Assembly: GCA_965206595.1 (NCBI GenBank)
Contig: OZ242214.1
Coordinates: forward strand, 3,936,001-4,000,000
Reading direction: 5' to 3'
DNA length: 64,000 nt
DNA from: Candidatus Latescibacterota bacterium
Lineage (GTDB): Bacteria > Latescibacterota > UBA2968 > UBA8231
The translations under genes were made by a program, and so were the position numbers. Below, in pieces: positions 39,483-58,290 of the stretch (the first letter of the stretch is position 1; every line of letters starts with the position of its first letter). The notes under the pieces were generated by a model. It searched no databases. It was not told the origin of the DNA and saw only the letters and a program-made list of their open reading frames with translations.

Positions 39483-39841
39483 TCATCCTGAGGCCGTCGG
39501 GTGTGAAATCCGAACCCGCCCACCGCGTATTGTTATCACCGCCCGCTCTTTCAGCGCTTGATGGTGATGGTCGATGACTGCTTCAACCAGTTCGATCCGC
39601 TGGGGCACTCGAGCGTCAGGCAGGAGTATCAATCCGGCGTGGACAACTCGGCGCAGGTAGATCAGTTCTCCGAAGTCCTTGTCGACGGTGACCAGAACCC
39701 GGTCTTCTGACCCCGCCCGTTCCAGCAATGCCCTGTCGCCGGGGTCCGGGCCGAGGGTCTCCGCTTCAACGACGTCGTGTCCCTTGGTGCGCAGCCACTC
39801 TGCCAGCCTCCGCCGGCGCATCGGTCAGTAAGGAATCTCAT
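39483..39841 (-). pseudogene. DUF5615 PIN-like toxin (VapC45-like) with an early frameshift
   Basis: ATG 39841 gives MRFLTDRCAG, then the frame shifts to RRLAEWLRTKGHDV..RVLVTVDKDFGELI. Confidence 0.75.
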
Positions 39842-40477: not shown

Positions 40478-41180
40478 TCAGCCGGCGATGAAACCGAGGT
40501 AGTTCCCGGGGTGAACCACCTCAAACGAGCTACGCGGATAGGCATGCCGCCAGCCGCCAGGGGCGCGGACAGCTCGGCCAGGCTTTGCGGACCACTTCAT
40601 CTCCGCCGCGTGCAGCCGCCCGCCCCACTCCTCGACCAGGTCGATCTCCTGCCGGTCGTAGGTGCGCCAGAAACGGCTCTCGGCCAGGCGCCCCGTGTAG
40701 AGGTTGTACTTCAGCCGCTCGACCATGATGTAGTTCTCCCACAGGGCGCCGGCGTCGTCCCGCAGGGACAGGGGGTTGAAGTTGCCGATCAGTCCGTTCC
40801 TGATCCCGTTGTCGTAGAAGTAGTAGCGACGGCTTTTGGTGATCTCCTTGCGAAGATTGCGGCTGAAGCCCCCCCGGCTGTAGATGACGTAGGCTTTCTC
40901 CAGCAGGTCGAGATAGCGGTCAACCGTGTTCTTGTTCATGCCGAGCCGGGTCCCCAGTTCGGACACCGAAACCTCGCGGCCGATCTGGAAAGCCAGCAGC
41001 TGGAGCAGGCGCAGCAGCTTGTCGGTATGCCGGACCCCCTCCAGCTGCAGGATGTCCTTGAACAGATAGGAAGCGACCAGCTCCCTGATGTAGAGCTCGC
41101 GGTCTTCGTTCGCTTCCATGAGGACGACCTCCGGGTAGGACCCGTAGATCAGCCGCATTTCGAGCCGGGCCTTCGTCTAC
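40478..41180 (-). pseudogene. C-terminal part of an AAA_14/DUF4143 ATPase
   Basis: YGSYPEV, YLDLLEKAY, YFYDNGIRN, GALWENY, FWRTYDRQEIDLV; P-loop half missing. Confidence 0.8.
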
Positions 41181-41739: not shown

Positions 41740-43002
41740 TCAACCTGTATCCTGCGCCAACTCCTCATGGCGCGCGGCGTAGATCGTCAGCTTGGTCGCG
41801 TCCCCGATCTGTTCGAGCTTGGGGCGGCGCCCGGACAGACGCAGGCTGTCCCTGACCAGGTTCAGGAACCCCTCTCCTCTGGCTTCCATATAGCTGCGGC
41901 CGGTAAGCGCGCTCTTGTAATCGCGCATGAATCCCGCCAGAAGCTGATTCCGGCGGACAGGCTGACAGCCCGCGTACAGGTTCTCGATGGTCAGGGTGTT
42001 GTAGAGGGCACCGGGATTCTGGAACTCGATCCGGTCGGGAAACAGGCGGATGATGATCTGCGAACCCGCGATCTCGTAATCCCGGTGCACGACGGCATTG
42101 ACGACCGCTTCCTGTAGAGCCGTTTCCACGTAACTCGGATAGTCCATTCGGCCCTCTCCGTCCTTCCTGGAGAGCGTCGGAACCAGGGGTGAAAGCCGGA
42201 TGTACGACAGCGCCTGGGCGATCTGCTCGGGCACGGGGCCGACGATCCGCTTGCTGTCCACGGTATTGCCGTCGGGCTCATCGTGGGCATATGCGGCCAG
42301 ATCGATGCAGGCGCCGTTCAAATGCCGCTCGGGCTGTTCGGCAAAGAGCAACAGCCCGAGGTGCGTCGGCGTCACACCCGAGTCCAGCTCGACGGCGAGT
42401 TTGTGGTCGACGAGGGTGGAGCCCCAGTCCTCGGGCCTGGACCAGTCCGGGAAGCGATCGAGGAAATATTGGTTCAAGCGAACCTCGCTCAGATCATCCA
42501 GATTGCTGCCCAAAACCGGTCTTTCTTCTACAGGGCTGGTCAGGCGACGAGCACTCAGCAGGCGTGCCAGTCGTTCCGGAGGGATGGATTGCCGGTGACT
42601 TCCCAATCGTTGAAGAAAGCGGCCGTCGCTCGTCTGGTGTATATCGAATCTGGACATGGGGATTTCAACAATCAGACACAGCTTTGGCACGCTGTCTTCT
42701 CCGGGAAGGTATTCCCAGTTCAACGCCGGTACGATCATAGACTTGCAGTTGTTCAGCGCCACGTTGACTACGAATTGCTCCAGGAGATCGCGCTTCTCGT
42801 GGTCGATTCCGACTGGAATGCGATCGCTGTTGGGCACGCCCATCACAACCTCGCCCCCCTTCGTGTTGGCCATGCTGACGAATACTTCTGCGAGTTTGGA
42901 CGCAGCCCGTCCTTCCTCCCTGGCAAAGGAAATCCTGTCTCCCCGGAACACGATCTCCTTCAGTTCGAGCTCGGTATCTTCCCCCGCCTGTATGGAATTC
43001 AT
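41740..43002 (-). CDS. Schlafen/AlbA_2 domain plus HATPase_c_4 (RecG-C-like) protein
   Basis: GEDTELELKE, MANTKGG, ALQEAVVNAVVHRDY, DRIEFQNPG, RRNQLL, MEARGEG. Confidence 0.85.
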   Translation of the reverse strand: MNSIQAGEDTELELKEIVFRGDRISFAREEGRAASKLAEVFVSMANTKGGEVVMGVPNSDRIPVGIDHEKRDLLEQFVVNVALNNCKSMIVPALNWEYLPGEDSVPKLCLIVEIPMSRFDIHQTSDGRFLQRLGSHRQSIPPERLARLLSARRLTSPVEERPVLGSNLDDLSEVRLNQYFLDRFPDWSRPEDWGSTLVDHKLAVELDSGVTPTHLGLLLFAEQPERHLNGACIDLAAYAHDEPDGNTVDSKRIVGPVPEQIAQALSYIRLSPLVPTLSRKDGEGRMDYPSYVETALQEAVVNAVVHRDYEIAGSQIIIRLFPDRIEFQNPGALYNTLTIENLYAGCQPVRRNQLLAGFMRDYKSALTGRSYMEARGEGFLNLVRDSLRLSGRRPKLEQIGDATKLTIYAARHEELAQDTG

Positions 43003-43107
43003 CCGTTCTTTGCTATCAATGGTCTTCGCCGCTCGCTCCGTGATCGGCTGCCTCCGGTGCCGACAGCGCCAACCAGCCGACAACCATGGTATGATAACGA
43101 CTGGCCA

Positions 43108-43443
43108 CTACTGGTCGAAGTACTTCGCCAGGATCAGCTCCTTGATCTCCTCGATCCCCCTTCCTTCATGGTGCCACTTGAAGGCGTCACGGCCTTCTTC
43201 GTTGCACTGGCGTCAGGTAGGGGGACAGCCTCCCTCGTAGCACCAGGCCAGGGTCTGTTTGCAACAGGCGCACGGCACCTCGCTGACCACCTCGGGGATC
43301 TCCTCCAGCAGGGTCCGGTAGAGGGCGAGTCCGTCAGGCGGCAACTCCGGCGGCTGGCTTTGCTGATGCAGGACGTAACCGCCGCCGGACAGAAGAACAG
43401 CTGCCGCTATGACGGCGAGGGCGGCTTTCCCTTTAGTGATCAC
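43108..43443 (-). CDS. PCYCGC-like Cys-rich exported protein with in-frame TGA at 43213-43215 (putative selenoprotein, 111 aa)
   Basis: VPCACC..LAWCY..GCPPT-TGA-RQCNEEGRDAFKWHHEGRGIEEIKELILAKYFDQ-TAG; the post-TGA part fits the CxxC..G..EI...I..KY tail of PCYCGC proteins. Confidence 0.7.
43173..43212 (-). promoter_or_regulatory. Putative bacterial SECIS stem-loop
   Basis: mRNA after UGA: CGCCAGUGCAACGAA-GAAGGC-CGUGAC-GCCUUC-AAGUGGC; 6-bp upper stem (43180-43197), loop 21 nt from UGA, GCCA/UGGC lower pairing. Confidence 0.55.
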
Positions 43444-43903
43444 TGTGCCCCTCCATTTTGCTGGCGGCCGGGGCGGAACCAGCCTCTCCGGCAGGTCGAA
43501 TCTCCGTGATCTCGATCCCGGTCAGGCCTCCCGAGGACCACAGGATCCCCTCGACGCTCACAGCCTGGCCGAGGTGCGGCAGCACAACTTCCTTCGGGTC
43601 GGCATGCCCGGAGGGCAGCACGACGAAAAGGTTCCCCGTCCTCTCCTCGAGGAAGGCCATCGGCATCCCGAGGTTGGCGCAGTAGACGGCGCACTTGGTG
43701 TGCTCCGGCCCGCTGGAGTCGTGGCGGAAGTAGCAGGCGATGTCGACGATCTCCCCCTGCATGGAAGCGGTATCGGCGACGGCCGCCTCGGCCGCCTCCG
43801 CCTTCTGGGTGGAGGCCTTGTCCTCGTGCACCGAGCACTGACTGCCTGTCGCTGCGGCCGGCAGGGCGATGGCGAGGATGGCGGCGAATCGGAAGCGTTT
43901 CAT
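43433..43903 (-). CDS. Secreted Cys/His protein, probable OB-fold metal-binding accessory
   Basis: Signal peptide; GEIVDIACY..HTKCAVYCANLGMP..GQAVSVEG; ATGA overlap with the cusA stop. Confidence 0.75.
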   Translation of the reverse strand: MKRFRFAAILAIALPAAATGSQCSVHEDKASTQKAEAAEAAVADTASMQGEIVDIACYFRHDSSGPEHTKCAVYCANLGMPMAFLEERTGNLFVVLPSGHADPKEVVLPHLGQAVSVEGILWSSGGLTGIEITEIRPAGEAGSAPAASKMEGHSDH

Positions 43904-46900
43904 GCTTTCACTCCTTCGTTGTGGGTGTGTGTATCCGTTGTCGGTTTGGCGCGGTCCCGCATCTGCAGGCCGCGCCAGAGCGTGTAAACGGCCGGCAGCA
44001 CCAGCAGCGCTAACAGTGTAGCGGTCGCCAGCCCCCCTACCATCGGGGCGGCTATCCGCTTCATCACCTGGGACCCTGTTCCCGAGGCCCACATGATCGG
44101 CAGCAGGCCGCCGACCGTCGAGCCTACGGTCATGAAGATCGGCCGCACCCGCCTCGAGGCCCCGTCGACGACGGCCGCGGCGAGATCGCCCGGGCTTTCG
44201 AGCCCGCCCTCCCTGCGGCGGCTTTCGAGCGCCTGGTCGAGGTAGGTCAGCATGACCACCCCGAGCTCGGCGCTGACCCCGGCGAGGGCGATGAACCCCA
44301 CGCCGACGGCGATGCTCATGTTGTAACCGAGCAGGTAGATGAGCCAGATCCCCCCGACCAGGGCGAAGGGGAGCGTCAACATCACCATCAGGCTCTCGGC
44401 GACGCTGCGAAAGTGGAGATACAGGAGCAGGAAGATGATGGCAAGCGTCACCGGAACGACGAGGCTCAGCCGCTGTTTGGCCCTCTCCATGTATTCGTAC
44501 TGGCCGCTCCAGACGAGGCTGTACCCAGGCGGCAGGTCGATCTGCTCGCCGACGGCCTGCCGCGCCTTCTCGACGTAGCTGCCGACGTCGACGTCGCGGA
44601 TGTCGATGTAGACCCAGGCGTTGAGGCGCGCGTTCTCGCTCTTGATGCCGGACGGCCCCTTGCTGAAGCGCAGGTCGGCGACCTGCCCGATGGGGATCTG
44701 CGCCCCCGTTGGCGTGGCCACCAGCACCCGCCGCAGGGCCGGCAGGTTGTCGCGCAGCTCCCGTCCGTAGCGCAGGTTGACCGGGTAGCGCTCGCGCCCC
44801 TCGACGGTGTAGGTAACGTTGACGCCGCCCATGGCCGACAGGATCACGTCCTGCACGTCGCCGACCGTCAGGCCGTAGCGCGCCGCCTCCTCGCGGTCGA
44901 TCTCGAAGTCGACGTAGTTGCCTCCGACGACCCGCTCGGCGTAGACGCTGGCGGTGCCGGGAAGCTCGCGCACCACCTGCTCGATCCGCCGGCCGACCTG
45001 CTCGAGGGTTTCGAGATCGTCGCCGGCGACCTTGATGCCTACGGGGGTCTTGATGCCGGTCGAGAGCATGTCGATGCGCGTCTTGATCGGCATGGTCCAG
45101 GAGTTGGTGAGGCCGGGAAAGCGGACCGCGGCGTCGAGCTCCCTGACCAGCTTCTCCGGGGTCATGCCCGGCCGCCACTCCTCCTGCGGCCGCAGGGTGA
45201 TTGTGGTCTCGATCATCGACAGCGGCGCCGGGTCGGTGGCGGTCTCGGCGCGGCCCACCTTGCCGAACACGTTCTCCACTTCGGGGAAGCTGCGGATGAT
45301 CCGGTCGGTCTGCTGCAGCAGCTCCCGCGCCTTTCTCACGGACACCCCCGGCAGGGTCGTCGGCATGTAGAGCAGGTCCCCCTCGTACAGGGGCGGCATG
45401 AACTCCGACCCGATCATCTCGAAGGGAAAGAGCCGCTGCAGGCGCTGGAGCGCCTGGTGCGCGAAGCTTCCGGGCCGGTCGGCGAAGCGCTCGACGACGG
45501 CGCTGCGGAAGGGAAACAGCGACACGAACATCACCGCCGCGGCGGCGGCGAGCACCGCGGCCTTGTGGCGCAGCAGCCAGCCCAGGACCGACGCGTACCC
45601 CCGGGTCAGCAGGCGGTTGAGGGGGTTGCGGTCCGCGTTGACGACGCGGCCGCGCAGGCAGAAGCCGATCAGCACCGGCACCACCGTGATCGACAGGATG
45701 GCGGCGGCGGCCATGGCGTAGGTCTTGGTGTAGGCCAGCGGCTTGAACAGCCGCCCTTCCTGCGCCTCCAGGGCGAAAACCGGCAGGAAGGACAGGGTGA
45801 CGATCAGCAGCGAGTAGAACAGCGCCGGCCCCACTTCCTTCGAAGCGTTGGCGATGATCTCCCAGTGGCCCTTGCGCCCGGCGTCCCGCGCCAGGTGCCG
45901 GTGGGCGTTCTCGATCTGCACGATGCCGGCGTCGACCATGGCGCCGACGGCGATGGCGATCCCCCCGAGCGACATGATGTTGGCGTTGATGCCCTGGCCC
46001 CACATGACGATGAAGGAGACGAGAATGCCCAGGGGCAGCGTGATGACGGCGGCGAAGGCGCTGCGGAAGTGGAGGAGGAAGAGCGCGCATACCGCGACCA
46101 CCACGAGGCACTCCTCTATCAGCTTCTCCTGCAGATGGCCGACGGCGCGGCGGATGAGCCCGGAGCGGTCGTAGGCGGTCTCCACGACCACCCCTTCCGG
46201 AAGGCCGGCCTCGAGCTCTTCGAGCCTCTCCTTGACGGCGTCGATCACCTTCAGGGCGTTCTCGCCGTAGCGCATCACCACGATGCCGCCGGCGACCTCT
46301 CCTTCGCCGTTCCACTCCGCCAGGCCGCGGCGCAGCTCCGGCCCCACCTGCACGGTGGCGACGTCGCGCACCCGCACCGGCGTCCCGGAGCTGCCGGCGC
46401 TCACCGGCACGTTGCGGATGTCCTCGAGCGACCGGATGTACCCGAGCCCGCGCACCATGAACTCGGTCTCGGCCAGCTCGATGAGGCGGCCGCCGACGTC
46501 GCTGTTGCTGCGCCGGATCGCGGCCCCGACCTGCTGCAGGGGAACCCCGTAGGCCAGCAGCTTGTTGGGGTCGACGGTCACCTGGTACTGCTTGACGAAG
46601 CCGCCGATGCTCGCGACCTCGGCGACCCCGGGCACGCTGGTCAGCTCGTAGCGCAGGTACCAGTCCTGGATCGAGCGCAGCTCGGCGAGGTCGCGGCGGC
46701 CGCTGGTGTCGACCAGGGCGTACTCGTACACCCAGCCGACCCCGGTGGCGTCCGGACCGAGCCTGGGCAGCACCCCTGCCGGCAGGCGGTCCCCGGCGAA
46801 GTTCAGGTACTCGAGCACGCGGCTGCGCGCCCAGTAGATGTCGGTGCCGTCCTCGAAAATGACGTAGACGAAGGAGAGCCCGAAGAAGGAGTACCCCCTC

Positions 46901-47145
46901 ACCGCCTTGGCGAACGGCACCGCCAGCATCGCCGTGCTCAGCGGAAAGGTCACCTGGTCCTCGACCACCTGCGGGGCCTGTCCCGGGTACTCGCTGTACA
47001 CGATCACCTGCACGTCCGACAGGTCGGGGATGGCGTCGAGCGGGGTGTCGGACATGGCGAGGAAACCGGCCGCCGCGGCCAGCAGGGCCAGAAGCAGGGT
47101 CAGCAGCTTGTTGCCGACGCAGGCCTCGATGACTCGGCCTATCAT
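43900..47145 (-). CDS. cusA: Heavy-metal efflux RND permease, Cu(I)/Ag(I) type
   Basis: LDAIPDLSDVQVI, GPDATGVGW, GAMVDA; Met triad YMPTT / APLSMIET / WTMPIK; start may be GTG 47148. Confidence 0.92.
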   Translation of the reverse strand: MIGRVIEACVGNKLLTLLLALLAAAAGFLAMSDTPLDAIPDLSDVQVIVYSEYPGQAPQVVEDQVTFPLSTAMLAVPFAKAVRGYSFFGLSFVYVIFEDGTDIYWARSRVLEYLNFAGDRLPAGVLPRLGPDATGVGWVYEYALVDTSGRRDLAELRSIQDWYLRYELTSVPGVAEVASIGGFVKQYQVTVDPNKLLAYGVPLQQVGAAIRRSNSDVGGRLIELAETEFMVRGLGYIRSLEDIRNVPVSAGSSGTPVRVRDVATVQVGPELRRGLAEWNGEGEVAGGIVVMRYGENALKVIDAVKERLEELEAGLPEGVVVETAYDRSGLIRRAVGHLQEKLIEECLVVVAVCALFLLHFRSAFAAVITLPLGILVSFIVMWGQGINANIMSLGGIAIAVGAMVDAGIVQIENAHRHLARDAGRKGHWEIIANASKEVGPALFYSLLIVTLSFLPVFALEAQEGRLFKPLAYTKTYAMAAAAILSITVVPVLIGFCLRGRVVNADRNPLNRLLTRGYASVLGWLLRHKAAVLAAAAAVMFVSLFPFRSAVVERFADRPGSFAHQALQRLQRLFPFEMIGSEFMPPLYEGDLLYMPTTLPGVSVRKARELLQQTDRIIRSFPEVENVFGKVGRAETATDPAPLSMIETTITLRPQEEWRPGMTPEKLVRELDAAVRFPGLTNSWTMPIKTRIDMLSTGIKTPVGIKVAGDDLETLEQVGRRIEQVVRELPGTASVYAERVVGGNYVDFEIDREEAARYGLTVGDVQDVILSAMGGVNVTYTVEGRERYPVNLRYGRELRDNLPALRRVLVATPTGAQIPIGQVADLRFSKGPSGIKSENARLNAWVYIDIRDVDVGSYVEKARQAVGEQIDLPPGYSLVWSGQYEYMERAKQRLSLVVPVTLAIIFLLLYLHFRSVAESLMVMLTLPFALVGGIWLIYLLGYNMSIAVGVGFIALAGVSAELGVVMLTYLDQALESRRREGGLESPGDLAAAVVDGASRRVRPIFMTVGSTVGGLLPIMWASGTGSQVMKRIAAPMVGGLATATLLALLVLPAVYTLWRGLQMRDRAKPTTDTHTHNEGVKA

Positions 47146-48539
47146 CACGCACCCTCCCGCATGGACCGGACCGCGGCCTTGAGGTTGCTCTCCGAGTCGA
47201 TCAGGAACTGCGCCGAGGTGACGATCCGCTCCCCTTCGCGGAGGCCGTCGAGCACCTCGTAGAAGCCCTCCGCCTCCGCTCCGACGCGGATCTCGCGCGG
47301 CTGGAAGCGGCCCTCGCCGAGGCTGACGACGGCGAGGCGGCGCGCCCCGGAGTGGATCACCGCCTGCACCGGAACCGCGACGACGCGCTCCTCCGGAAGG
47401 GGCGAGCGGATGGTGACGTTGGCGTACATCTCCGGCTTCAGCTCGAGTCCGGGGTTGGGCAAGGTCACGCGCACCTTCACGGTCCGCGTCTTCGCTTCGA
47501 GGAAGGGGTAGACGTAGGTGACCTTGCCGGTGAAGGTCTTCCCGGGCAGGTAGGGCAGCTCGACCACGGCCTCCTGCCCCTCCCGCACCCACGGCAGCTC
47601 GTACTCGTAGATGTCGGCGTAAACCCAGACATGCGACAGCTCGGCGATGCGGTAGAGGTGCTGCCCCCGGGCGATGTGCTGACCGTCGAACACCGCCTTG
47701 TGAACCACGGTCCCCTGCTGCGGGGAGTGCACGGTCATGGTGCGCCGCACCGACCCGGTCTCCCGCAGCTCGTCTATCTGCCGGTCGCTGATGTCCCAGT
47801 AGCGCAGCCGCTGCAGCGACGCCGACAGCAGGTCGCGCGCCCCTGCGAGGGCGTCGCCCTCCGCGCCCTCCGCGCCCTCCGCGCCGGCGCGGAGGCGCGC
47901 GCTGTAGTCGACCGCGGTCAGAAACTCCTCCTGGGCAGCCACCAGCTCCGGGCTGTAGATCTGCAGCAACGGCTCTCCTTTCCCGACCATCTGCCCGGTG
48001 TAGTCGACGAACAGCTTCTCCACCCAGCCGGCGATCTTGGTGTTGACGTCCGTCATGCGCGTCTCGTCGTAGTCGACGCGGCCGACGGTGCGCAGGGTGC
48101 GGTGCAGAATCCGGCGCTCCACCGCCGCGGTCTTCACCCCGATGTTCTGCACCGTCGCAGCATCGATGGTCACCGTGCCCTCGGCTTCCAGCTCGTCCTC
48201 GTACACCGGCACCAGGTCCATCCCCATCGGAGACTTTCCCGGCTCCGGGGAGGTGTACGACGGGTCCATCGGCGCCCGCCAGTAGGCGATGACGCGTTCG
48301 CCTCCGGAGGCGCTGCCTCCGGCCGGCTCGTCGGCCACCAGGTCCATGCCGCAGATCGGGCAACTGCCCGGACCGTCGGAGACCACGGTCGGGTGCATGG
48401 GACAGCGGTACACGGAGGCTTCCTCATGTTGGGCGTACGACTGCATTTCGAATGCGCCCCCCAGCCACAGGCCGAGACCGAGCCCGGCGGCCAGCGACAG
48501 GACGACGGCGATTCCGTATTTCCACATGGCGGTCTTCAT
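47145..48539 (-). CDS. cusB: Efflux RND periplasmic adaptor with heavy-metal-binding domains
   Basis: YRCPMHP..CPICGMDL, APMDPSY..GKSPMGMDL, YSPELVAAQEE, LKPEMY, SAQFLIDSES. Confidence 0.9.
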   Translation of the reverse strand: MKTAMWKYGIAVVLSLAAGLGLGLWLGGAFEMQSYAQHEEASVYRCPMHPTVVSDGPGSCPICGMDLVADEPAGGSASGGERVIAYWRAPMDPSYTSPEPGKSPMGMDLVPVYEDELEAEGTVTIDAATVQNIGVKTAAVERRILHRTLRTVGRVDYDETRMTDVNTKIAGWVEKLFVDYTGQMVGKGEPLLQIYSPELVAAQEEFLTAVDYSARLRAGAEGAEGAEGDALAGARDLLSASLQRLRYWDISDRQIDELRETGSVRRTMTVHSPQQGTVVHKAVFDGQHIARGQHLYRIAELSHVWVYADIYEYELPWVREGQEAVVELPYLPGKTFTGKVTYVYPFLEAKTRTVKVRVTLPNPGLELKPEMYANVTIRSPLPEERVVAVPVQAVIHSGARRLAVVSLGEGRFQPREIRVGAEAEGFYEVLDGLREGERIVTSAQFLIDSESNLKAAVRSMREGA

Positions 48540-48711: not shown

Positions 48712-49968
48712 TCAGAAGAGCCTCCTGCCCACGACGGACTCCAGCTGCGCCAGGGTCTTCTCGTATTGCGACAGGTGGCGGTAGTAGTCGATCTCGAAAT
48801 TCAGCAGGGTCACCTGGCTGTCGAGCAGGGTGAGGAAGTCGACCTCGTCGACCTGGTAGCCGGCGATGGCCGCGGCCAGCGACTGGTCGGCCTGGGGAAT
48901 GATCGCGTCGCGGAACAGCGCCATCTCCCGCAGGTGGGTCTCGGCGTCGATCCGCAGCTGCTCGATCTGCAGGGCCAGCTCGCGGCTTTCCGCCTCGAGC
49001 TCCGCCTCGGCCGCCCTGACCTCCGCCCGCGCCGCGGCGATCTCCCGCTGCCTGCGGCCCTGGTAGACCGGCAGGTTCAGCATCACGCCGGCGGAGAAGA
49101 AGTCGCTTCCCGCCACCGCATCCTCCCTGAAGCCGCGCTGGCGCCAGGCGGCGCTGACCTGGAAATCCGGGCGGCGTTCCCGATCCGCCAGCTCCTCGAC
49201 CGCCCGCCAGCGCTCCCGCCTGGCGCGCAGGCGGTTCAGGAGTGGGCGCTCGCCCTGGGCGAGCGCCCACAGCCGGCCCGCGTCGATGTCGAGAGGGGTC
49301 CGCTCGATCGGGGGCGCCCTGCCCACAGGTTCTCCCGGGGGCCGGTTCAGCACCGCGTTCAGCCGGGCGCCGGTCCGCCGCCGTTGCCGCTCCAGCATCA
49401 ACAGGCGGTCGCGCAGGCTCGACAGCGACACCTGCGCCTTGAGCACGTCCTGCTGGGGGCCGCGGGCCACCGAGTACTTGCTCTGCGCGATGCGAACGAA
49501 ATCCTTCAGCAGCGACCGGTTCCTCTCGGCGATGGCGATCGCCCTGTCGAGGAAGCCCAGCTCGTAATAGGCCTGCTTCACCATGTTGGCGACGGTCAGC
49601 TCGCGTTCCCGGTGGGCGCCTGCAACGGCCTCGGCGGCGTGGGAGGCGGCGCGTTCCCGGGCCTTGCGCTTGCCCGGGTAGGGGAGCTTCTGGGACAGGG
49701 TTACCTGGCGGCCGCTCATCGGCGAGCCGTCGAGGTCGAAGGGACTGAAAGGGACGTTGCTCAGCTCCAGCCGGAGCGACGGGTCCTGCAGCGCCCCGGC
49801 GGCGGGGACCCTGGCCTCGGCCGCGGCGGTCCGGTGCTCGAGCGCCTTCAGCCCGGGATTCGCGGCCAGGGCCTCCTCGATCAGGCGCTCGAGGTCGAGC
49901 TCGGGTGGATCAGCGGACGCGGACGCGGCCAGCGCCAGCGCCGCGGCGGCAATGATTCTTCGGTGCAT
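48712..49968 (-). CDS. TolC/CusC-family outer-membrane factor
   Basis: Signal peptide, ALAANP, SQKLPYPGKR, QQDVLKAQV, DFLTLLDSQ. Confidence 0.88.
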   Translation of the reverse strand: MHRRIIAAAALALAASASADPPELDLERLIEEALAANPGLKALEHRTAAAEARVPAAGALQDPSLRLELSNVPFSPFDLDGSPMSGRQVTLSQKLPYPGKRKARERAASHAAEAVAGAHRERELTVANMVKQAYYELGFLDRAIAIAERNRSLLKDFVRIAQSKYSVARGPQQDVLKAQVSLSSLRDRLLMLERQRRRTGARLNAVLNRPPGEPVGRAPPIERTPLDIDAGRLWALAQGERPLLNRLRARRERWRAVEELADRERRPDFQVSAAWRQRGFREDAVAGSDFFSAGVMLNLPVYQGRRQREIAAARAEVRAAEAELEAESRELALQIEQLRIDAETHLREMALFRDAIIPQADQSLAAAIAGYQVDEVDFLTLLDSQVTLLNFEIDYYRHLSQYEKTLAQLESVVGRRLF

Positions 49969-50128
49969 CTTCCTCCTCCTGCAAAAGGCGAACCGCCCGC
50001 GCACCGGGTAGACCGGTACAGGCGGCAATGCGCAGGACTCGCTGCCCGGCCTTCGGTGCAGAACCGGCCTGCGCTTCGCTTGATGCGCTCTGCATCGGCC
50101 GCGGCGGCGCGACGAGAGCGGAGGAGGA

Positions 50129-50509
50129 TCAGATCAGGTAGACGTCGTGGAGGACGTAGAGGGGAACTGCGGCGGGATGCAGCGGGGGCCGGATGCCGGA
50201 AGGACGCGGCGGTGCCGCCCGGGGAGCGCGCTCCGGAGCCTTGGGGGCGAGCGCCGGGGCCGGGGCCTTGGCCGCGGGCAGGTAGCCGTGGCCCGGCTCG
50301 GCGGAAGGCTGCGAATCCTCGGCGCAGGCCAGGGCGGAGCAGCAGAAGCAATCGGCCCGAAGCTGCGGCCGGTCGTCGGCCTGCTGCGGGTGGCAGCCGG
50401 GAGCCGCCTCCACCTGCGCGCAGTGGAGGCAGTACCCCTCCAGGGCGAAACTGGAAGCCGGCAGGGCGGCGACGAGCGCTGCCAGCGCTATGGCTCGGAC
50501 GATTCTCAT
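50129..50509 (-). CDS. Small exported Cys/His-rich protein heading the efflux operon (CzcI/DUF2946-like)
   Basis: Signal peptide, YCLHC, GCH, DCFCC, Pro-rich linker, C-terminal PLYVLHDVYLI. Confidence 0.65.
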   Translation of the reverse strand: MRIVRAIALAALVAALPASSFALEGYCLHCAQVEAAPGCHPQQADDRPQLRADCFCCSALACAEDSQPSAEPGHGYLPAAKAPAPALAPKAPERAPRAAPPRPSGIRPPLHPAAVPLYVLHDVYLI

Positions 50510-52908: not shown

Positions 52909-54246
52909 CTACAGTTCATATTTTTCAAATTTGTAGCGGAACGTGGTTCGTTCGATACCGAGCAATTTCGCGGCGTCAGCTTTGACCTTGTTTGCCTTTA
53001 GATAGGCATCCCACAAGAGCTGCTTTTCAAAAGCCTCGACGCGCTCCGTCAATGTGCCGCTTTCTACGTGATGTTCAGGCGATTGAACGTTTAGCGAGAG
53101 GTCATCAGGTGTAATCGCGTTCCCCTGCGCCAACACAACGGCGCGTTCGATGGCGTTCTCGAGTTCCCTGACATTGCCCGCCCAAGAGTACGTGGTCAGC
53201 AACTCCATTGCGCTGGGATGCACTGACGACACCTTCTTGCCGATCTCGGCGTTGTACTTGAGCAGGAAATGGGCCACGAGCAGCGGAATGTCTTCGCGAC
53301 GTTCGCGCAAAGGCGGGACGTCGATTGGTACTACATTGAGGCGATAGTACAGGTCTTCACGGAATGCCCCTTCCCTGATGCGGTCGGCCAGGTTTTGATT
53401 GGTCGCGGCGACAAGTCGGACATCGACGGAGATCGAGCGGGTTCCCCCGACGCGCTCGAACTCCCGTTCCTGCAGGACGCGCAGCAGTTTGACCTGCATC
53501 GCCGGCGTACTCTCGCCGATCTCATCGAGAAACAACGTACCGCCATCCGCGATCTCAAAACGTCCTGGTTTCATCTTTACGGCCTGGGTAAATGCGCCTT
53601 TCTCATGGCCGAAAAGTTCGCTTTCCAGCACGCCCTCTGCCAGGGCAGCGCAATTGACTTTGACAAAGGGTTTTTCCCGGCGCGTGCTATGCTGGTGGAT
53701 GGCACGGGCAACGAGCTCTTTCCCAGTGCCGCTTTCCCCGCCGATAAGCACGGTCGACTGGGTCGACCCGACCGTTTGTATCCTGCGAAAGACCGCTTGC
53801 ATTTTAGGGCTTTCACCCATGATCTCGTCAAAGCCGTAACGTAGCTCGTCTTCTCGGCGCAGGTACGCGTTTTCCTTACTGAGACGGCGTCCTCCAAGGG
53901 CTTGTTCAATTTTTATTTCTATCTGTTCAAGCGTGTACGGTTTGGTTATAAAATCCACCGCCCCCTTTTGCATGGCTTCAACGGCCAACTCGATCGTGCC
54001 AAAAGCCGTCATCATTACGACACTCGTTTCCGGCGAGGTCTCGGCAATGGCTGCGAGGACTTCAACCCCGGTCTTCTTTGGCATCTGAATATCAACCATG
54101 GCCAAATCGAAAAAAAACTCCTTGACCGCGGCGATCGCATCCTCTCCGTCAAATGCAACATGGGTCGAATGCCCCAGCCCCCCAAGCGCGAGGGCGAGCC
54201 CTTCTCTGGTGCTTTTATGGTCATCGGCGATCAGTATCCGGCTCAT
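52909..54246 (-). CDS. Sigma54-dependent response regulator (NtrC/ZraR family)
   Basis: Receiver (ADD, DIQMP), GESGTGKE, ESELFGHEKGAFTQA, LFLDEIG, WAGNVRELEN, Fis-type HTH. Confidence 0.95.
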   Translation of the reverse strand: MSRILIADDHKSTREGLALALGGLGHSTHVAFDGEDAIAAVKEFFFDLAMVDIQMPKKTGVEVLAAIAETSPETSVVMMTAFGTIELAVEAMQKGAVDFITKPYTLEQIEIKIEQALGGRRLSKENAYLRREDELRYGFDEIMGESPKMQAVFRRIQTVGSTQSTVLIGGESGTGKELVARAIHQHSTRREKPFVKVNCAALAEGVLESELFGHEKGAFTQAVKMKPGRFEIADGGTLFLDEIGESTPAMQVKLLRVLQEREFERVGGTRSISVDVRLVAATNQNLADRIREGAFREDLYYRLNVVPIDVPPLRERREDIPLLVAHFLLKYNAEIGKKVSSVHPSAMELLTTYSWAGNVRELENAIERAVVLAQGNAITPDDLSLNVQSPEHHVESGTLTERVEAFEKQLLWDAYLKANKVKADAAKLLGIERTTFRYKFEKYEL

Positions 54247-55703
54247 GTCCGTCTCTCTCGTTCCATAGTCGTCGGCAATTTGAGGGCAAACGTCGTACCG
54301 CCGCCATGCTTACTCGTGCATTCAATCGTTCCTCGGTGATGCTCGACCAGCCGTTTTACGATTGCCGACCCCAGCCCCGTGCCCTTGTTTTTAGTGGTAA
54401 AAAACGGGATAAAAGCGCGTTCCGCCGTCTCGGCGGACATACCCACTCCGGTATCCCGAACCTCGACGCGGATGGCATCTGCGTCCGCATCGACAAAACC
54501 TTCGACGGCGATGGTTCCGCCCCGGTCGATTGCTTGCGCGGCATTCTTGAGCAGATTGGTGAACACCCATTTGAGTTGGTCGGCGTCTGCTTCGATTGTG
54601 GGCAAGGTGTCCAGGTTTACCGTTTGAACCTCGATAGTGTCCGCACGCAACTCCGCATCGAAGAGTGCCAGTACTGAAGCGACTACGTCCGACAAGTCCA
54701 CCGCCTCGGCCTGCAACGGCGTCGGACGCGCAAAGTCCAGAAATTCGCTGACCAGTTGGTTCAATGACTGCACTTCCCCATCTACTTGTTCAATCAGTTG
54801 CTCCGCCTTTGGGTCGGCCGGGATCTGGCGTTTGAGCAAGCCTAGGAAAATTCGCATCCCGTTAAGCGGGTTTCTGACTTCATGGGCGAGCCCTGCCGAT
54901 AGCTGTCGAAGCTCCTCGGCCATGCGCGACACCTGCTGGTCCCGCTCTTGAATCGCGATACTCATCTCGTTGAATGTCGTGGCTAGCACGCCAACTTCGT
55001 CTTTACTGCGCGTTTCAACCTGCGTCCCGAATGCCCCGGCCTTAATCTGTTGGGTCGCTTGCGAGAGTCTCTCAATCGGCACGACGATCGACCGAGCTAA
55101 AAAGATGCTGAGGACGAGTGCAAAAACCACACCAACGACGCCGATGAGTACCATGTTGCGGCTCATCCTCGCAAGGCTTTCAAGGAACAGCACACTGGCA
55201 TCCACGGCGAGGATGGCGACGATATCACCGTGTTCGTCGTGGATGGGCGCATACGCAGATCGGTAAAAAGCATCGTCTTTGCCGTGAAAGGCGACTGAAG
55301 CGGCCCATATCCCTCCCTTGGCTTGATCAAGATGGATTCTGTCTTCGCCCAGTGAGTGGTATTGACTGCCAATGGGCACATCAAGGCGGGAATCAACGAG
55401 GCTTTTGTATTCAAGGTCGAGCACGTACATCGCCTGCGCGTCGGAAGCATCGCGCATGGACTGCAGCTTTTTTTGCAGCGTTCGGTACAACCGCGTGCCT
55501 TCGCCGCCCGGCTGGAGTGCGCGCAAGTAGCTTCCATTGAGTTGTGCTGCAGAGGTCTTGGCCACCGCCACGAGCCGTTCGCCCATCTCGGCGTCGAGCG
55601 CACGCTTTGCCGTGTCGTAAAATAGATAACTACTAGCCGTCAAAACCAAGACCACGAGCAGCGCAATGGTGAGGGTTGTCTTGGTTTGGAGGCGAACCTT
55701 CAT
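54243..55703 (-). CDS. Sensor histidine kinase (TM-sensor-TM-HAMP-HisKA-HATPase)
   Basis: AGLAHEVRNPL, NLLKNA, DTGVGM, FFTTK, GTGLG. Confidence 0.93.
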   Translation of the reverse strand: MKVRLQTKTTLTIALLVVLVLTASSYLFYDTAKRALDAEMGERLVAVAKTSAAQLNGSYLRALQPGGEGTRLYRTLQKKLQSMRDASDAQAMYVLDLEYKSLVDSRLDVPIGSQYHSLGEDRIHLDQAKGGIWAASVAFHGKDDAFYRSAYAPIHDEHGDIVAILAVDASVLFLESLARMSRNMVLIGVVGVVFALVLSIFLARSIVVPIERLSQATQQIKAGAFGTQVETRSKDEVGVLATTFNEMSIAIQERDQQVSRMAEELRQLSAGLAHEVRNPLNGMRIFLGLLKRQIPADPKAEQLIEQVDGEVQSLNQLVSEFLDFARPTPLQAEAVDLSDVVASVLALFDAELRADTIEVQTVNLDTLPTIEADADQLKWVFTNLLKNAAQAIDRGGTIAVEGFVDADADAIRVEVRDTGVGMSAETAERAFIPFFTTKNKGTGLGSAIVKRLVEHHRGTIECTSKHGGGTTFALKLPTTMERERRT

Positions 55704-55829
55704 GCGTTTTTTCACACGTAGTAATTTATTGAATAACAGCCGGAAAAAAATGGGTCCATGGCGGGGCCCCCGTGGCGCGCAACAAAACATTTTGAGCCTT
55801 CGCCGAATTTATCGGGAAAATGTCCTTCT

Positions 55830-55916: not shown

Positions 55917-55931
55917 TGGCACGGAGATTGC
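55917..55931 (+). promoter_or_regulatory. Sigma54 -24/-12 promoter
   Basis: TGGCACG-GAGA-TTGC matches the TGGCACG-N4-TTGC consensus; divergent from an NtrC-family two-component operon. Confidence 0.85.
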
Positions 55932-56065: not shown

Positions 56066-56620
56066 ATGTTTGCACTTACGATTCTTGCACTGGTGCTGTG
56101 GGGATGCAGCGACAGAGAGGCTTCCCCGATGGCACCCTTTGGAGGTTCGCTCTGCGATCCAGCAGGGAAGATCTCCGACAACGACAACGGCGGTGAGGGC
56201 AGCGGCGAACATGGTCGCGGCGGTGAAGACGGCAACGAAGGTATAGAAAGCAGCGAAGGCAGAGAGGGTGGCGGGGAAGAATCCGCTACTCAATACGCAC
56301 GAGCTGACACCTTCGATGAAGTGAGGGCCGGTGCCCGTCTGATCATATCCTATTATGAAGATGCCGGGGAATTCAGAGGCACGGTCGAGAACACCACTGA
56401 CGGCACTCTACAGCAGGTTCGGGTAGAAGTCCATCTGTCCAACGGCGTTGAACTTGGACCCACAACGCCAACAGATATGGCCCCTGGGGAAACCATCGAG
56501 GTAGTCTTGGCTGTTCTGGAAAATGACCGCGATTTCTCCACCTATGGAGCCCATCCAGAGGTCGGATCGTCTGAACAGGAGGACAGTGCTACCGTCGTCC
56601 TTGACGTCGGGGAATGCTGA
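56066..56620 (+). CDS. Putative lipoprotein with Gly/Glu-rich linker and FxLYD-like Ig domain
   Basis: Lipobox-like LVLWGC; FRGTVENTT..VRVEVHLSNGVELGPT..APGE. Confidence 0.7.
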   Translation: MFALTILALVLWGCSDREASPMAPFGGSLCDPAGKISDNDNGGEGSGEHGRGGEDGNEGIESSEGREGGGEESATQYARADTFDEVRAGARLIISYYEDAGEFRGTVENTTDGTLQQVRVEVHLSNGVELGPTTPTDMAPGETIEVVLAVLENDRDFSTYGAHPEVGSSEQEDSATVVLDVGEC

Positions 56621-56688: not shown

Positions 56689-58218
56689 TCAGTTCCCTGG
56701 CAGATTGGGGCCGGGGGCGGAATGGTAGCAGGTTAAGTTGTTACGAAGGGTGGGGTGGGTTGGAGGCAGCAGCGAGGGCGCCGGCTGTTGCGACACCGCA
56801 GCCTGACAGGCCACCCTGAGATAGTCGAGGACGTTGCGCTGTTGCTGGCGCAGGGTATCGCGCACCGTGAGCAGACGCTCTACAAAACGGCTGCCTCCGG
56901 CACTGTGGGTGCCGATTGGGGGTAAAGCACTCCATTATGGATTCCGGTATCCGTGCTTTTTTACCTCCAAAAGCTGGTGTGACGCCACAGCACGCCATGA
57001 CGAAGGGCTCGTTCGGCTTCGTTGTTGGTCGGCTCGACGCCTTGTGTGCGCACGAAGGTCCACCGGGCCGGCCCGAGGTCTCGGAGGTTGGCGCAGGTGG
57101 CCGCCGTCTTGGCGTCGGCGAACTGCTGACCATACCCCAAGTAGGTATGAAACCGCCCACGCAAGCCGCTGACGTAGACCTGGAAGCTGGACCGTTGCAA
57201 GGTGCCGTCGCGGACGCGGTGCCACCAGCCAAACACCTGGTCGCTGGAATCCAACAGCCGTTGCCCGACCCAGGCGGCCTCCCACGAACTCCTCGAAGGT
57301 GCGCCGCAGATGCGCCCAGCAGACGTGCCGGCGTCGAAGCGGCAGATGCCCATAGGCCGAATAGCGATCGGAGCCGACCACCGCCCGGGTATCGGCCCCC
57401 AGCACCTCATCGACCCCGTCCCGTCCCCGGCCTTTTCGAATGGCGAACACGGTGACGCCCTCCGTCACTGCGGTCCACAACCAGGCCTTGGCGCGGCGCT
57501 GCCGCCAGCCGGTCTCGTCGACGTTGACTATGGGCTGTCGGCGAACAAAGGCGCGCGCCTCCTCGACCGCACCCGCCAGGGCCGCGGCCACCTCCTGTTG
57601 CAGTCGGCTGACCGTGCCCAGCGACACCTCAAGCCCGAAGGCGTCGGACAACAGCGACTGAATGTTGCGCTTGCTCATCCGGTAGGCCCCGGCCAACAGG
57701 CCGACCCAGGCCTGCACGCTGGGGCCGAAGGTGTGCCGCGACACGCCCTCGGGCCAACCGGCTTCGGTCAGGCGGTCGCAGTGAGCGCAGCGCAGGGTGT
57801 GCAACTGATACTCGATGACCTCGGCGCGCAGCGCAGGGAGGACGACTTCCTGGTGACGCTGCGGATGAGGATCGTCTCCCGTCAACGGGTGCCCGCATCC
57901 GTGGCACTGGCTGGGCTTGACCGGGATCCGTTCGTCCACCTGCTCGACGGTTACCCACGAGCGGCCGGGTCCTTCGTGCCCGGGCTGTGCGCCCGGCGAG
58001 CGCCCCGAGGATCGGCGTCGCGAGGCATCGGTGCGCGGCGAAGAGGAAGCGCCCGATTCCGAGGAGGCGGCTCCCCGGCGGGATCGTCCCTTGCGGCGGG
58101 CCAATTCCTGCTCCAGCTCGGCGAGGCGCGCCGTCAGTTGTTCCACGATCTGCTCGAGCTGGGCAATACGCTTGCGCAAGTCGCTTGCGGAAATCGCACT
58201 CTCAGGAGGTCTTTTCAT
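56689..58218 (-). pseudogene. IS66 transposase, disrupted
   Basis: GAQPGHEG, CxxC zinc ribbon, VDETGW, SDRYSAY, CWAHL, VEPTNNEAERALR; frameshift near 57285 and ~56-bp insert near 56915-56971. Confidence 0.88.
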
Positions 58219-58290
58219 GGGGGTCGCCGTATCCGGAAAAATCAAAAACACACACCCAATCCCGAAGATACCGACGGACCTGAAAACACG

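Follow-up and report, generated by a model that had tools for sequence, protein, structure and literature searches.

The small periplasmic protein CusF, which like SilF is encoded inside a pump operon, has an OB-fold with His, Met and Trp ligands, binds Cu(I)/Ag(I) and feeds the pump. Selenocysteine (Sec) has been predicted in several proteins tied to heavy-metal resistance, where it is possibly a metal ligand; the portion of the survey PMC13188914 that was available to us names an SO_0444 family Cu/Zn efflux transporter, CopZ-family 2Fe-2S proteins, MerP-like proteins and mercuric transport proteins, and describes none of these as an accessory of CusCBA. The same portion lists CYCXC/OS_HP4 as a family of UxxC selenoproteins, OS_HP4 is given with UxxC also in a 2022 review (PMC9312934), and the name is not among the families listed in the part of the GOS paper at hand (PMC2398784). 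Here we describe a gene from Candidatus Latescibacterota that lies in a stretch of 64,000 nucleotides (contig OZ242214.1, positions 3,936,001 to 4,000,000; in the following the window) and closes an operon for a copper/silver exporter of the CusCBA type. This gene contains an in-frame UGA codon, and its product is almost certainly a Sec protein of the CYCXC/OS_HP4/PCYCGC superfamily. The best explanation overall, to which we give a probability of roughly 0.6, is that of a recoded selenoprotein that acts as periplasmic Cu(I)/Ag(I)-binding partner of the exporter. In the predicted Sec and the tie to heavy metals it resembles the SO_0444, CopZ and MerP-like proteins, from which it differs in fold and family.

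The in-frame UGA codon and its surroundings

The gene starts with GTG and reaches a TGA after 76 codons, and the same frame goes on for 34 sense codons (RQCNEEGRDAFKWHHEGRGIEEIKELILAKYFDQ) up to a TAG (coordinates in Table 1). The initial annotation had proposed this read-through frame from the letters alone, and re-reading the sequence gave the same result. The read-through product has the Cys/Sec pattern C58-A-C60-C61...C68...C73...U77-R-Q-C80. A GGAGG lies 6 nt 5' of the GTG, and the first 11 nt of the gene are shared with the upstream gene, whose TAA stop is at 43435-43433. Such an overlap had been claimed before and was found again; the upstream gene encodes a secreted OB-fold protein of 156 aa and not CusA.

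A search for protein homologues in 5.8 billion clusters gave 18 sequences, 17 of which end exactly at ...GGCPP[T/S], one residue short of the Sec column, so that standard gene callers do truncate the gene at the TGA. The 18th homologue (113 aa) has a W at the Sec column, followed by RECNEEGRDAFKW... / RECNEEGRDAFKWYQEGK...KYF, and its DNA (locus L064) has TGA at this very position. An exhaustive profile search of 1.84 billion representatives (50 %-identity clusters) yielded 118 clusters at E <= 1e-3 and 30 at E <= 1e-10; among these best 30, 22 stop at the Sec column, seven are full length with Cys and one is a fragment with Gly. Moreover, 16 of 168 genomes of the phylum, the window's own counted, contain a homologue. 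Twelve of them have TGA at the Sec column and four have Cys, the latter with 34-40 % identity and the motif ...CP[VL][SN]-C-G-P-C-N. A metagenome scan added 19 loci, 11 with TGA and eight with Cys, so that the TGA column is held in all Sec-type loci, 12/12 from genomes and 11/11 from metagenomes (23/23). The prediction that homologues would have either a conserved TGA or Cys at this column was thus borne out, and DNA contigs from two other studies are identical to the window at the TGA (43213-43215) and the hairpin. Two kinds of matches were set aside: the Asgard archaeal loci L014-L016 of the genome scan are radical-SAM proteins matching on a short word, and a second match in the own genome (C1:2200998, E 0.008) has TGA and TAG inside and was taken as chance.

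Behind the UGA, eight codons vary synonymously with the amino acid kept (N+4, E+6, G+17, I+23, I+27, K+30, Y+31 and F+32). Since amino acids are kept while codons vary, the 34 codons past the UGA evolve as coding sequence.

The UGA is followed by a SECIS-like (selenocysteine insertion sequence) hairpin, which has the position and sequence that the initial annotation had given. The hairpin is found in 12/12 genome loci and in all eight metagenomic Sec loci inspected, and it is absent from the Cys-type homologues. Its stem is paired in 100 % of the cells, the changes being A-U to G.U and, in one locus, G-C to G.U, and its loop has the consensus CGKGAY across the Sec loci. When those columns are considered that have an invariant, degenerate amino acid, and a column is called frozen if a single codon occurs in all 12 sequences, four of five columns are frozen in the hairpin vs two of 27 elsewhere (Fisher p = 0.002); relatedness cancels in this test because the columns are compared within the same sequences. 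A possible lower helix is paired in 91.7 % of the cells, with two pairs changed on both sides. A search of Rfam matched no SECIS family and gave two chance matches only.

The genome to which the window belongs, one contig of 7.05 Mb, encodes SelA (464 bits), SelB (59.6 bits) and SelD (368 bits) as well as a tRNA-Sec with the anticodon tca, so that the whole set of selA, selB, selC and selD is present. SelA is also encoded in 14/15 other homologue-bearing genomes, the exception being 81 % complete. TGA is the stop of nine out of 13 family-identified genes in the window and thus a normal stop there; therefore, a reassigned genetic code is excluded. The selD gene of this genome (C1:6566458-6567381, minus strand) is a selenoprotein gene itself, with an in-frame TGA (...KTCG-U-AAKAS...) and a hairpin GAGCCC-GGUC-GGGCUC 11 nt past the UGA.

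With a conserved UGA, Cys in homologues, a SECIS-like hairpin and complete Sec machinery, the proposal of a selenoprotein gene stands. We consider the comparative evidence for this predicted recoding, that is the TGA column, the downstream frame and the hairpin in every Sec-type homologue examined, to be decisive.

The RNA-library contigs that match the gene at 99 % or more (42995-43355) are labelled sponge metagenome, which points to a sponge-associated community as habitat of the organism or of a close relative.

Relation to the CYCXC/OS_HP4/PCYCGC family and predicted structure

A Pfam search with the selenoprotein matched no family at E <= 10, PF13798 and CusF included; PF13798 obtained a language-model score of 0.81 for a natural Cys homologue, which is a lead only. 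The search of NCBIfam gave one match, NF041379 ('OS_HP4_CYCXC, CYCXC family (seleno)protein'), with 33.8 bits and E 2.5e-8. The weaker matches of the profile search belong to this canonical family. Of the 118 clusters, 103 were scanned with NF041379, the 15 omitted ones being long, multi-domain or fragmentary. The curated cut-off of 90 bits is exceeded by 23/103 clusters and by 0/30 of the closest ones (best 57 bits), and the relatives with a C-x-C-C motif, which we call the CxCC branch, score 20-57 bits or not at all. Likewise, none of the 168 genomes of the phylum encodes a member above the cut-off.

The kinship becomes clear when profiles are compared. An hhalign comparison of the alignment of 16 sequences with 19 NF041379 members and near-members (17 over the 90-bit cut-off, two just under) gave a probability of 98.9 % and E 2.5e-17 over 74 columns. 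It places U77-x-x-C80 on the invariant CxxC of the canonical proteins, with U77 on the first Cys, and C58/C60/C61 on the canonical C-Y-C-x-C with one residue fewer. A deletion of five residues takes out the first invariant His of the canonical proteins, and the invariant C73 falls on the second. Both groups are small exported or lipoprotein-type domains with an '(E)IPxV' helix, a Cys triplet, a C-Y motif and a CxxC followed by G...G[KR]...EI...I...[FY]. However, the hallmarks of NF041379, the C-Y-C-x-C motif and two invariant His, are not found in the selenoprotein, which has C-A-C-C (C-x-C-C in the branch) and neither His. In the tree, the canonical group (100/98) and the CxCC clade (97/98) are separate; the 16 Sec rows are compatible with a single origin at weak support (52/71), and the Cys rows occur in at least two places.

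The kinship with the PCYCGC family and the position of Sec as first residue of CxxC, both claimed in the initial annotation, thus withstood the comparison. Judged by sequence, the predicted gene product is a divergent CxCC branch of CYCXC/OS_HP4/PCYCGC with Sec at the homologous CxxC, and it is not a new selenoprotein class. The novelty of the gene had been overstated in this respect, as CYCXC/OS_HP4/PCYCGC is already listed as a UxxC selenoprotein family. The other part of that claim holds: no paper on a Sec-containing Cus component was found. The supplementary tables of surveys may already list members of the branch. A literature search for a function of PCYCGC/PF13798 or a link to copper found nothing relevant.

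The N-terminus has K4 and K6, a hydrophobic run of 12 residues and then small residues, in agreement with the export signal proposed earlier. A Sec-type signal or anchor and export of the product can be assumed from this; many homologues have a lipobox-like L-x-[GAS]-C at the N-terminus in place of the signal of the window gene. In the AlphaFold2 model, calculated with the alignment of 16 sequences, residues 31-110 have a predicted local distance difference test (pLDDT) score of about 97, and the first 26 residues are disordered (pLDDT < 50). The predicted helices comprise residues 39-48, 50-53, 65-72, 78-92 and 97-109, and U77 caps the N-terminus of helix 78-92. Seven Cys/Sec residues are invariant in the domain (C58, C60, C61, C68, C73, U77 and C80). 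Foldseek found nothing at E <= 0.001 with this model, and the best match of a sequence search of the PDB had E 0.27.

The copper/silver neighbourhood and the proposed role of the product

As stated in the initial annotation, the selenoprotein gene is the last gene of a CusCBA operon. The permease shares 57.3 % identity with CusA of E. coli over 1036 columns and has kept the three-Met Cu(I)/Ag(I) site (M573/M623/M672) together with its flanking motifs. The top NCBIfam match of the fusion protein is CusB (208 bits, under the 390-bit cut-off). With an HME-RND permease that has the three-Met site, the fusion protein and the outer-membrane factor (family matches in Table 1), the operon is a true Cu(I)/Ag(I) CusCBA efflux system. 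CusF (PF11604) has no match anywhere in the own genome. The OB-fold protein, whose gene separates that of CusA from the selenoprotein gene, is a member of a family without a name that was found in related metagenomes only, and it has a near-invariant His and Met besides its C, H, C and C. Its model gave generic OB matches (RPA/SSB with E 5e-3; Z 5-6.7 for OB-folds in general, SilF with Ag(I) among them at Z 5.8), and the modelled protein may stand in for CusF.

The neighbourhood recurs in other genomes. RND genes adjoin the homologue in 11/16 genomes (G000, G103, G104, G166, G164, G165, G159, G095, G147 and, with the Cys form, G162 and G158), and a YHS/HMBD P-type ATPase does so in one more, the Cys-type G163, so that 12/16 genomes show a link; the ATPase is also found in G158. 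Furthermore, at least four gene orders occur among the loci. Besides pump, OB-fold protein and selenoprotein, or pump and selenoprotein, there are OB-fold protein, selenoprotein and pump (G147, L068/69), selenoprotein and outer-membrane factor (L071), pump, HMA/DUF3347 proteins and selenoprotein (L067), and ATPase and Cys form (L078, G163). The link to copper exists for Sec and Cys forms alike.

A tblastn search with a canonical member led to five plasmids, and the two that were opened both have copper clusters. NZ_CP090645.1 has the order RND permease, copper-binding protein, DsbD, several small proteins, PCYCGC and P-II, with cueR and HMA nearby, and NZ_CP084269.1 the order cueR, homologue, multicopper oxidase, HiPIP, P-II, DsbD, copper-binding protein and RND permease. 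These PCYCGC (lipo)proteins of Burkholderia and Caballeronia plasmids (e.g., WP_042973472.1 of NZ_CP090645.1) are of the same superfamily and have RND, copper-binding, cueR and multicopper oxidase neighbours; however, they contain Cys and not Sec, are of the canonical CYCGC type and are encoded alongside DsbD. A small P-II family protein recurs 3' of the CxCC/PCYCGC gene in copper clusters that belong to unrelated bacteria, namely in L067 (8824-9162), L084 (7343-7660) and L085 (7921-8238).

Judged by gene neighbourhood and residue patterns, the product may be a metal or redox partner of the pump, and it is likely that the selenoprotein serves copper/silver handling. That it does so as metal binder and not as oxidoreductase has a chance just short of even. 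In this proposal, UGA 43215-43213 would be decoded as Sec via the hairpin 15 nt 3' of it, SelB and tRNA-Sec, and translation would be coupled to that of the secreted OB-fold protein. The signal or anchor of the precursor of 111 residues would bring a helical domain of about 75 residues into the periplasm, where its selenolate and thiolates would serve as ligands of Cu(I)/Ag(I). At the start of helix 78-92, U77-x-x-C80 may form a metal exchange site like the MxCxxC of CopZ/Atx1, in which the CxxC also lies at the N-terminus of a helix. A selenolate is deprotonated at periplasmic pH and hard to over-oxidise, and would be suited to fast capture and release of Cu(I)/Ag(I). In this genome, which lacks CusF, the selenoprotein would buffer periplasmic metal or hand it to the exporter, either by itself or together with the OB-fold protein. 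The proposed role is thus that of CusF, to which this Cys/Sec-rich helical bundle has no relation in sequence or fold. A metal-ligand role is preferred because the canonical proteins have an invariant His in the column of C73, an exchange that one expects for metal ligands but not for disulfide partners, because several family members have His-rich C-terminal tails, and because the gene accompanies both classes of Cu(I) exporters. Moreover, a Cys/His OB-fold protein often adjoins it while CusF is missing from the genome, and the U-x-x-C at the helix N-terminus resembles the CopZ/Atx1 site.

Several points weigh against this proposal. No metal genes were seen near the homologue in four genomes (G113, G096, G131 and G161), nor in the available DNA of the metagenome loci L064, L072, L073, L075 and L082, of which L072 and L082 repeat G131 and G161; short metagenome loci lacking a metal gene are no evidence of absence, and L070, L074 and L081 (1.3-1.4 kb) as well as L080 (upstream flank cut) are too short to judge. 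The linked loci are not independent, since the g1 and four g18 genomes have one island in common, and counted by genus the copper link is present in 4/7. The selenoprotein misses the 90-bit cut-off of NF041379 and likewise does not match PF13798. The hairpin is conserved and four of its five codons are frozen, which upholds that part of the earlier assessment, but its fold energy alone is not significant in a shuffle test (z -1.5, 14/200 shuffles as stable), and the covariation score of the lower helix was reached by 74/500 shuffles, which is not significant either. Short contigs from two RNA libraries, >= 99 % alike, span both sides of the UGA and are a weak hint of expression that carried-over DNA could explain. 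Finally, the odd number of Cys/Sec residues, the CxxC at a helix N-terminus, the DsbD in the clusters and the weak likeness to CcmH fit a redox enzyme equally well.

A selenoprotein of the same family might accordingly be a periplasmic selenol/thiol oxidoreductase, in which U77-x-x-C80 cycles between selenylsulfide and reduced form and is recharged by a membrane reductase of the CcdA/DsbD type. Its task would be the reduction of Cu(II) to Cu(I) for CusCBA or, as in Dsb/Scs, the repair of disulfides misformed by copper. We regard this as the main alternative, possible but rather unlikely. Sec is the first residue of a CxxC at a helix N-terminus, and most known UxxC selenoproteins are thiol oxidoreductases according to the part of PMC2398784 available. 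On the two plasmids, the copper cluster with the gene for the canonical PCYCGC lipoprotein also has one for DsbD, and a DsbD_TM gene exists elsewhere in the own genome; the operon in the window, however, has no DsbD gene. The closest natural fold is the periplasmic domain of CcmH (2hl7, 2kw0; Foldseek TM score 0.55, E 2.1), a membrane-anchored three-helix domain with one CxxC that belongs to the thiol oxidoreductases outside the thioredoxins. With an exhaustive aligner, 2hl7 gave Z 5.4 and a root mean square deviation of 3.0 over 64 residues at 20 % identity, which is level with designed bundles (Z 5.5-5.8) and below what is meaningful for helical proteins. CcmH, moreover, has no sequence relation to the selenoprotein and lacks its extra Cys cluster. 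The exchange of Cys and His at an invariant column and the His-rich tails suggest metal ligation instead. Metal binder and oxidoreductase are not exclusive, as a periplasmic CxxC that binds metal must be maintained in the reduced state, too.

It is improbable that the Cys/Sec cluster is a structural, Fe-S or Zn centre unrelated to copper, whose gene hitch-hikes on a mobile metal-resistance island. This would agree with the IS66 transposase, Schlafen/AlbA_2 and DUF4143 genes that flank a locus about 90 % identical between two genera, with the four of 16 genomes lacking nearby metal genes, and with Parageobacillus, where a PCYCGC lipoprotein, whose function is called unknown in the part of PMC13068155 considered, adjoins an Fe3+ binding protein. 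Yet the loci that show the link differ in gene order, their pumps are of two classes, both Cys and Sec forms are among them, and in Proteobacteria the link is found for the canonical family; moreover, overlapping starts and stops bind the gene to its operon.

An ordinary stop at the TGA, with a product of 76 residues and the downstream conservation due to a separate small ORF or RNA element, has hardly any probability left, as has a pseudogene with nonsense mutation or an assembly error: the gene-called proteins do have 75-79 residues, TGA is the usual stop in this genome and the 32-aa database entry P0060 represents the part behind the UGA as a separate gene that starts just past the TGA, but the window gene has no start codon 3' of the TGA, the same TGA is present in 23/23 Sec-type loci from many assemblies and in the contigs of two further studies, uninterrupted homologues have Cys at the Sec column, and the part past the TGA, which is needed for a confident fold, has its counterpart in the C-terminal helices of the canonical proteins, so that ordinary stop, nonsense mutation and sequencing error are effectively excluded.

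The cus operon, a possible mobile island and the meaning of the locus

Table 1. Positions of the selenoprotein gene, its elements and the remaining genes of the cus operon in the window.
Feature	Position	Strand	Remarks
Selenoprotein gene	43108..43443	-	111 codons; GTG 43443-43441, Sec codon 77, TAG 43110-43108
UGA as selenocysteine codon, U77 of U-R-Q-C	43213..43215	-	conserved TGA column, Cys in homologues
Predicted N-terminal export signal or membrane anchor	43372..43443	-	about residues 1-24; K4, K6, hydrophobic ALAVIAAAVLL; read from sequence
SECIS-like hairpin GAAGGC/CGUGAC/GCCUUC	43180..43197	-	6-bp stem; stem 15 nt, loop 21 nt past UGA
Possible lower helix extending the hairpin	43171..43207	-	alignment columns 9-15 with 39-45; weak support
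Secreted OB-fold protein, 156 aa	43433..43903	-	invariant Cys/His/Cys/Cys; ATGA overlap with CusA stop; stop overlaps selenoprotein start
CusA-type heavy-metal RND permease	43900..47145	-	ACR_tran 751 bits; TIGR00914 1235 bits (cut-off 701)
CusB-type membrane fusion protein with HMBD domains	47145..48539	-	HlyD_D23 277 bits, HMBD 72.9 bits
Outer-membrane factor (CusC-like)	48712..50028	-	OEP 153 bits
Secreted Cys-rich protein, 126 aa, operon head	50129..50509	-	CxxC, C, CxCC, C

Relatives encode the Cys-rich protein of 126 aa at the same place, as first gene of the operon (54-92 % identity), and it matched no Pfam or NCBIfam family. Upstream of the cus operon, a histidine kinase and a sigma-54 response regulator are encoded (52909-55790). 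A perfect sigma-54 -24/-12 site, TGGCAC-N5-TTGC, lies at 55917-55931 on the plus strand, divergent from the kinase/regulator pair and 135 nt 5' of an FxLYD ORF (56066-56620). A scan for the sigma-54 pattern gave 54 matches vs 60 expected and none in front of the cus operon, and a scan for promoters and terminators gave one weak site of each, no excess over shuffles.

In the region 38000-58300, the cus cluster is flanked by an IS66 transposase (56935-58251), a Schlafen/AlbA_2 gene (41740-43083), a DUF4143 gene (40478-41158) and a toxin-like gene of the DUF5615/Mut7-C kind (39483-39821), and the G+C content is lower on either side of it, so that it looks like a mobile island. The island is common to the g1 genomes and four g18 genomes, in which CusA is about 90 % identical, and the CusA of the Cys-type g18 loci is about 71 % identical. 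One contig with a Sec-type locus (L011 / G159:C1, 4780 nt) is labelled Gemmatimonadaceae in the public record, and the genome collection assigns it to the family and genus of the Latescibacterota genomes. Either the binning or labelling is at odds here, or the island was transferred.

The whole branch of the family scores below the curated cut-offs, public records cut its proteins short at the UGA (22/30 best clusters), and model-based surveys of selenoproteomes will miss it. With copper/silver exporters as neighbours in two phyla, of Sec as well as of Cys forms, the PCYCGC/CYCXC family has its first functional lead, and its function is now testable. It is a tentative thought, with the odds somewhat against it, that the protein is the first Sec-containing dedicated periplasmic partner of Cu/Ag exporters (CusCBA, P1B ATPases), that the U-x-x-C selenolate and the OB-fold protein together replace CusF, and that the whole PCYCGC/CYCXC superfamily is a widespread class of periplasmic copper-handling proteins. 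If the function is unrelated to copper, the finding comes down to a new subfamily, routine in itself, of an already known selenoprotein family. If the proposal is true, selenium would have a new use in metal homeostasis, with a periplasmic selenolate as ligand of Cu(I)/Ag(I) or as reductant of Cu(II).

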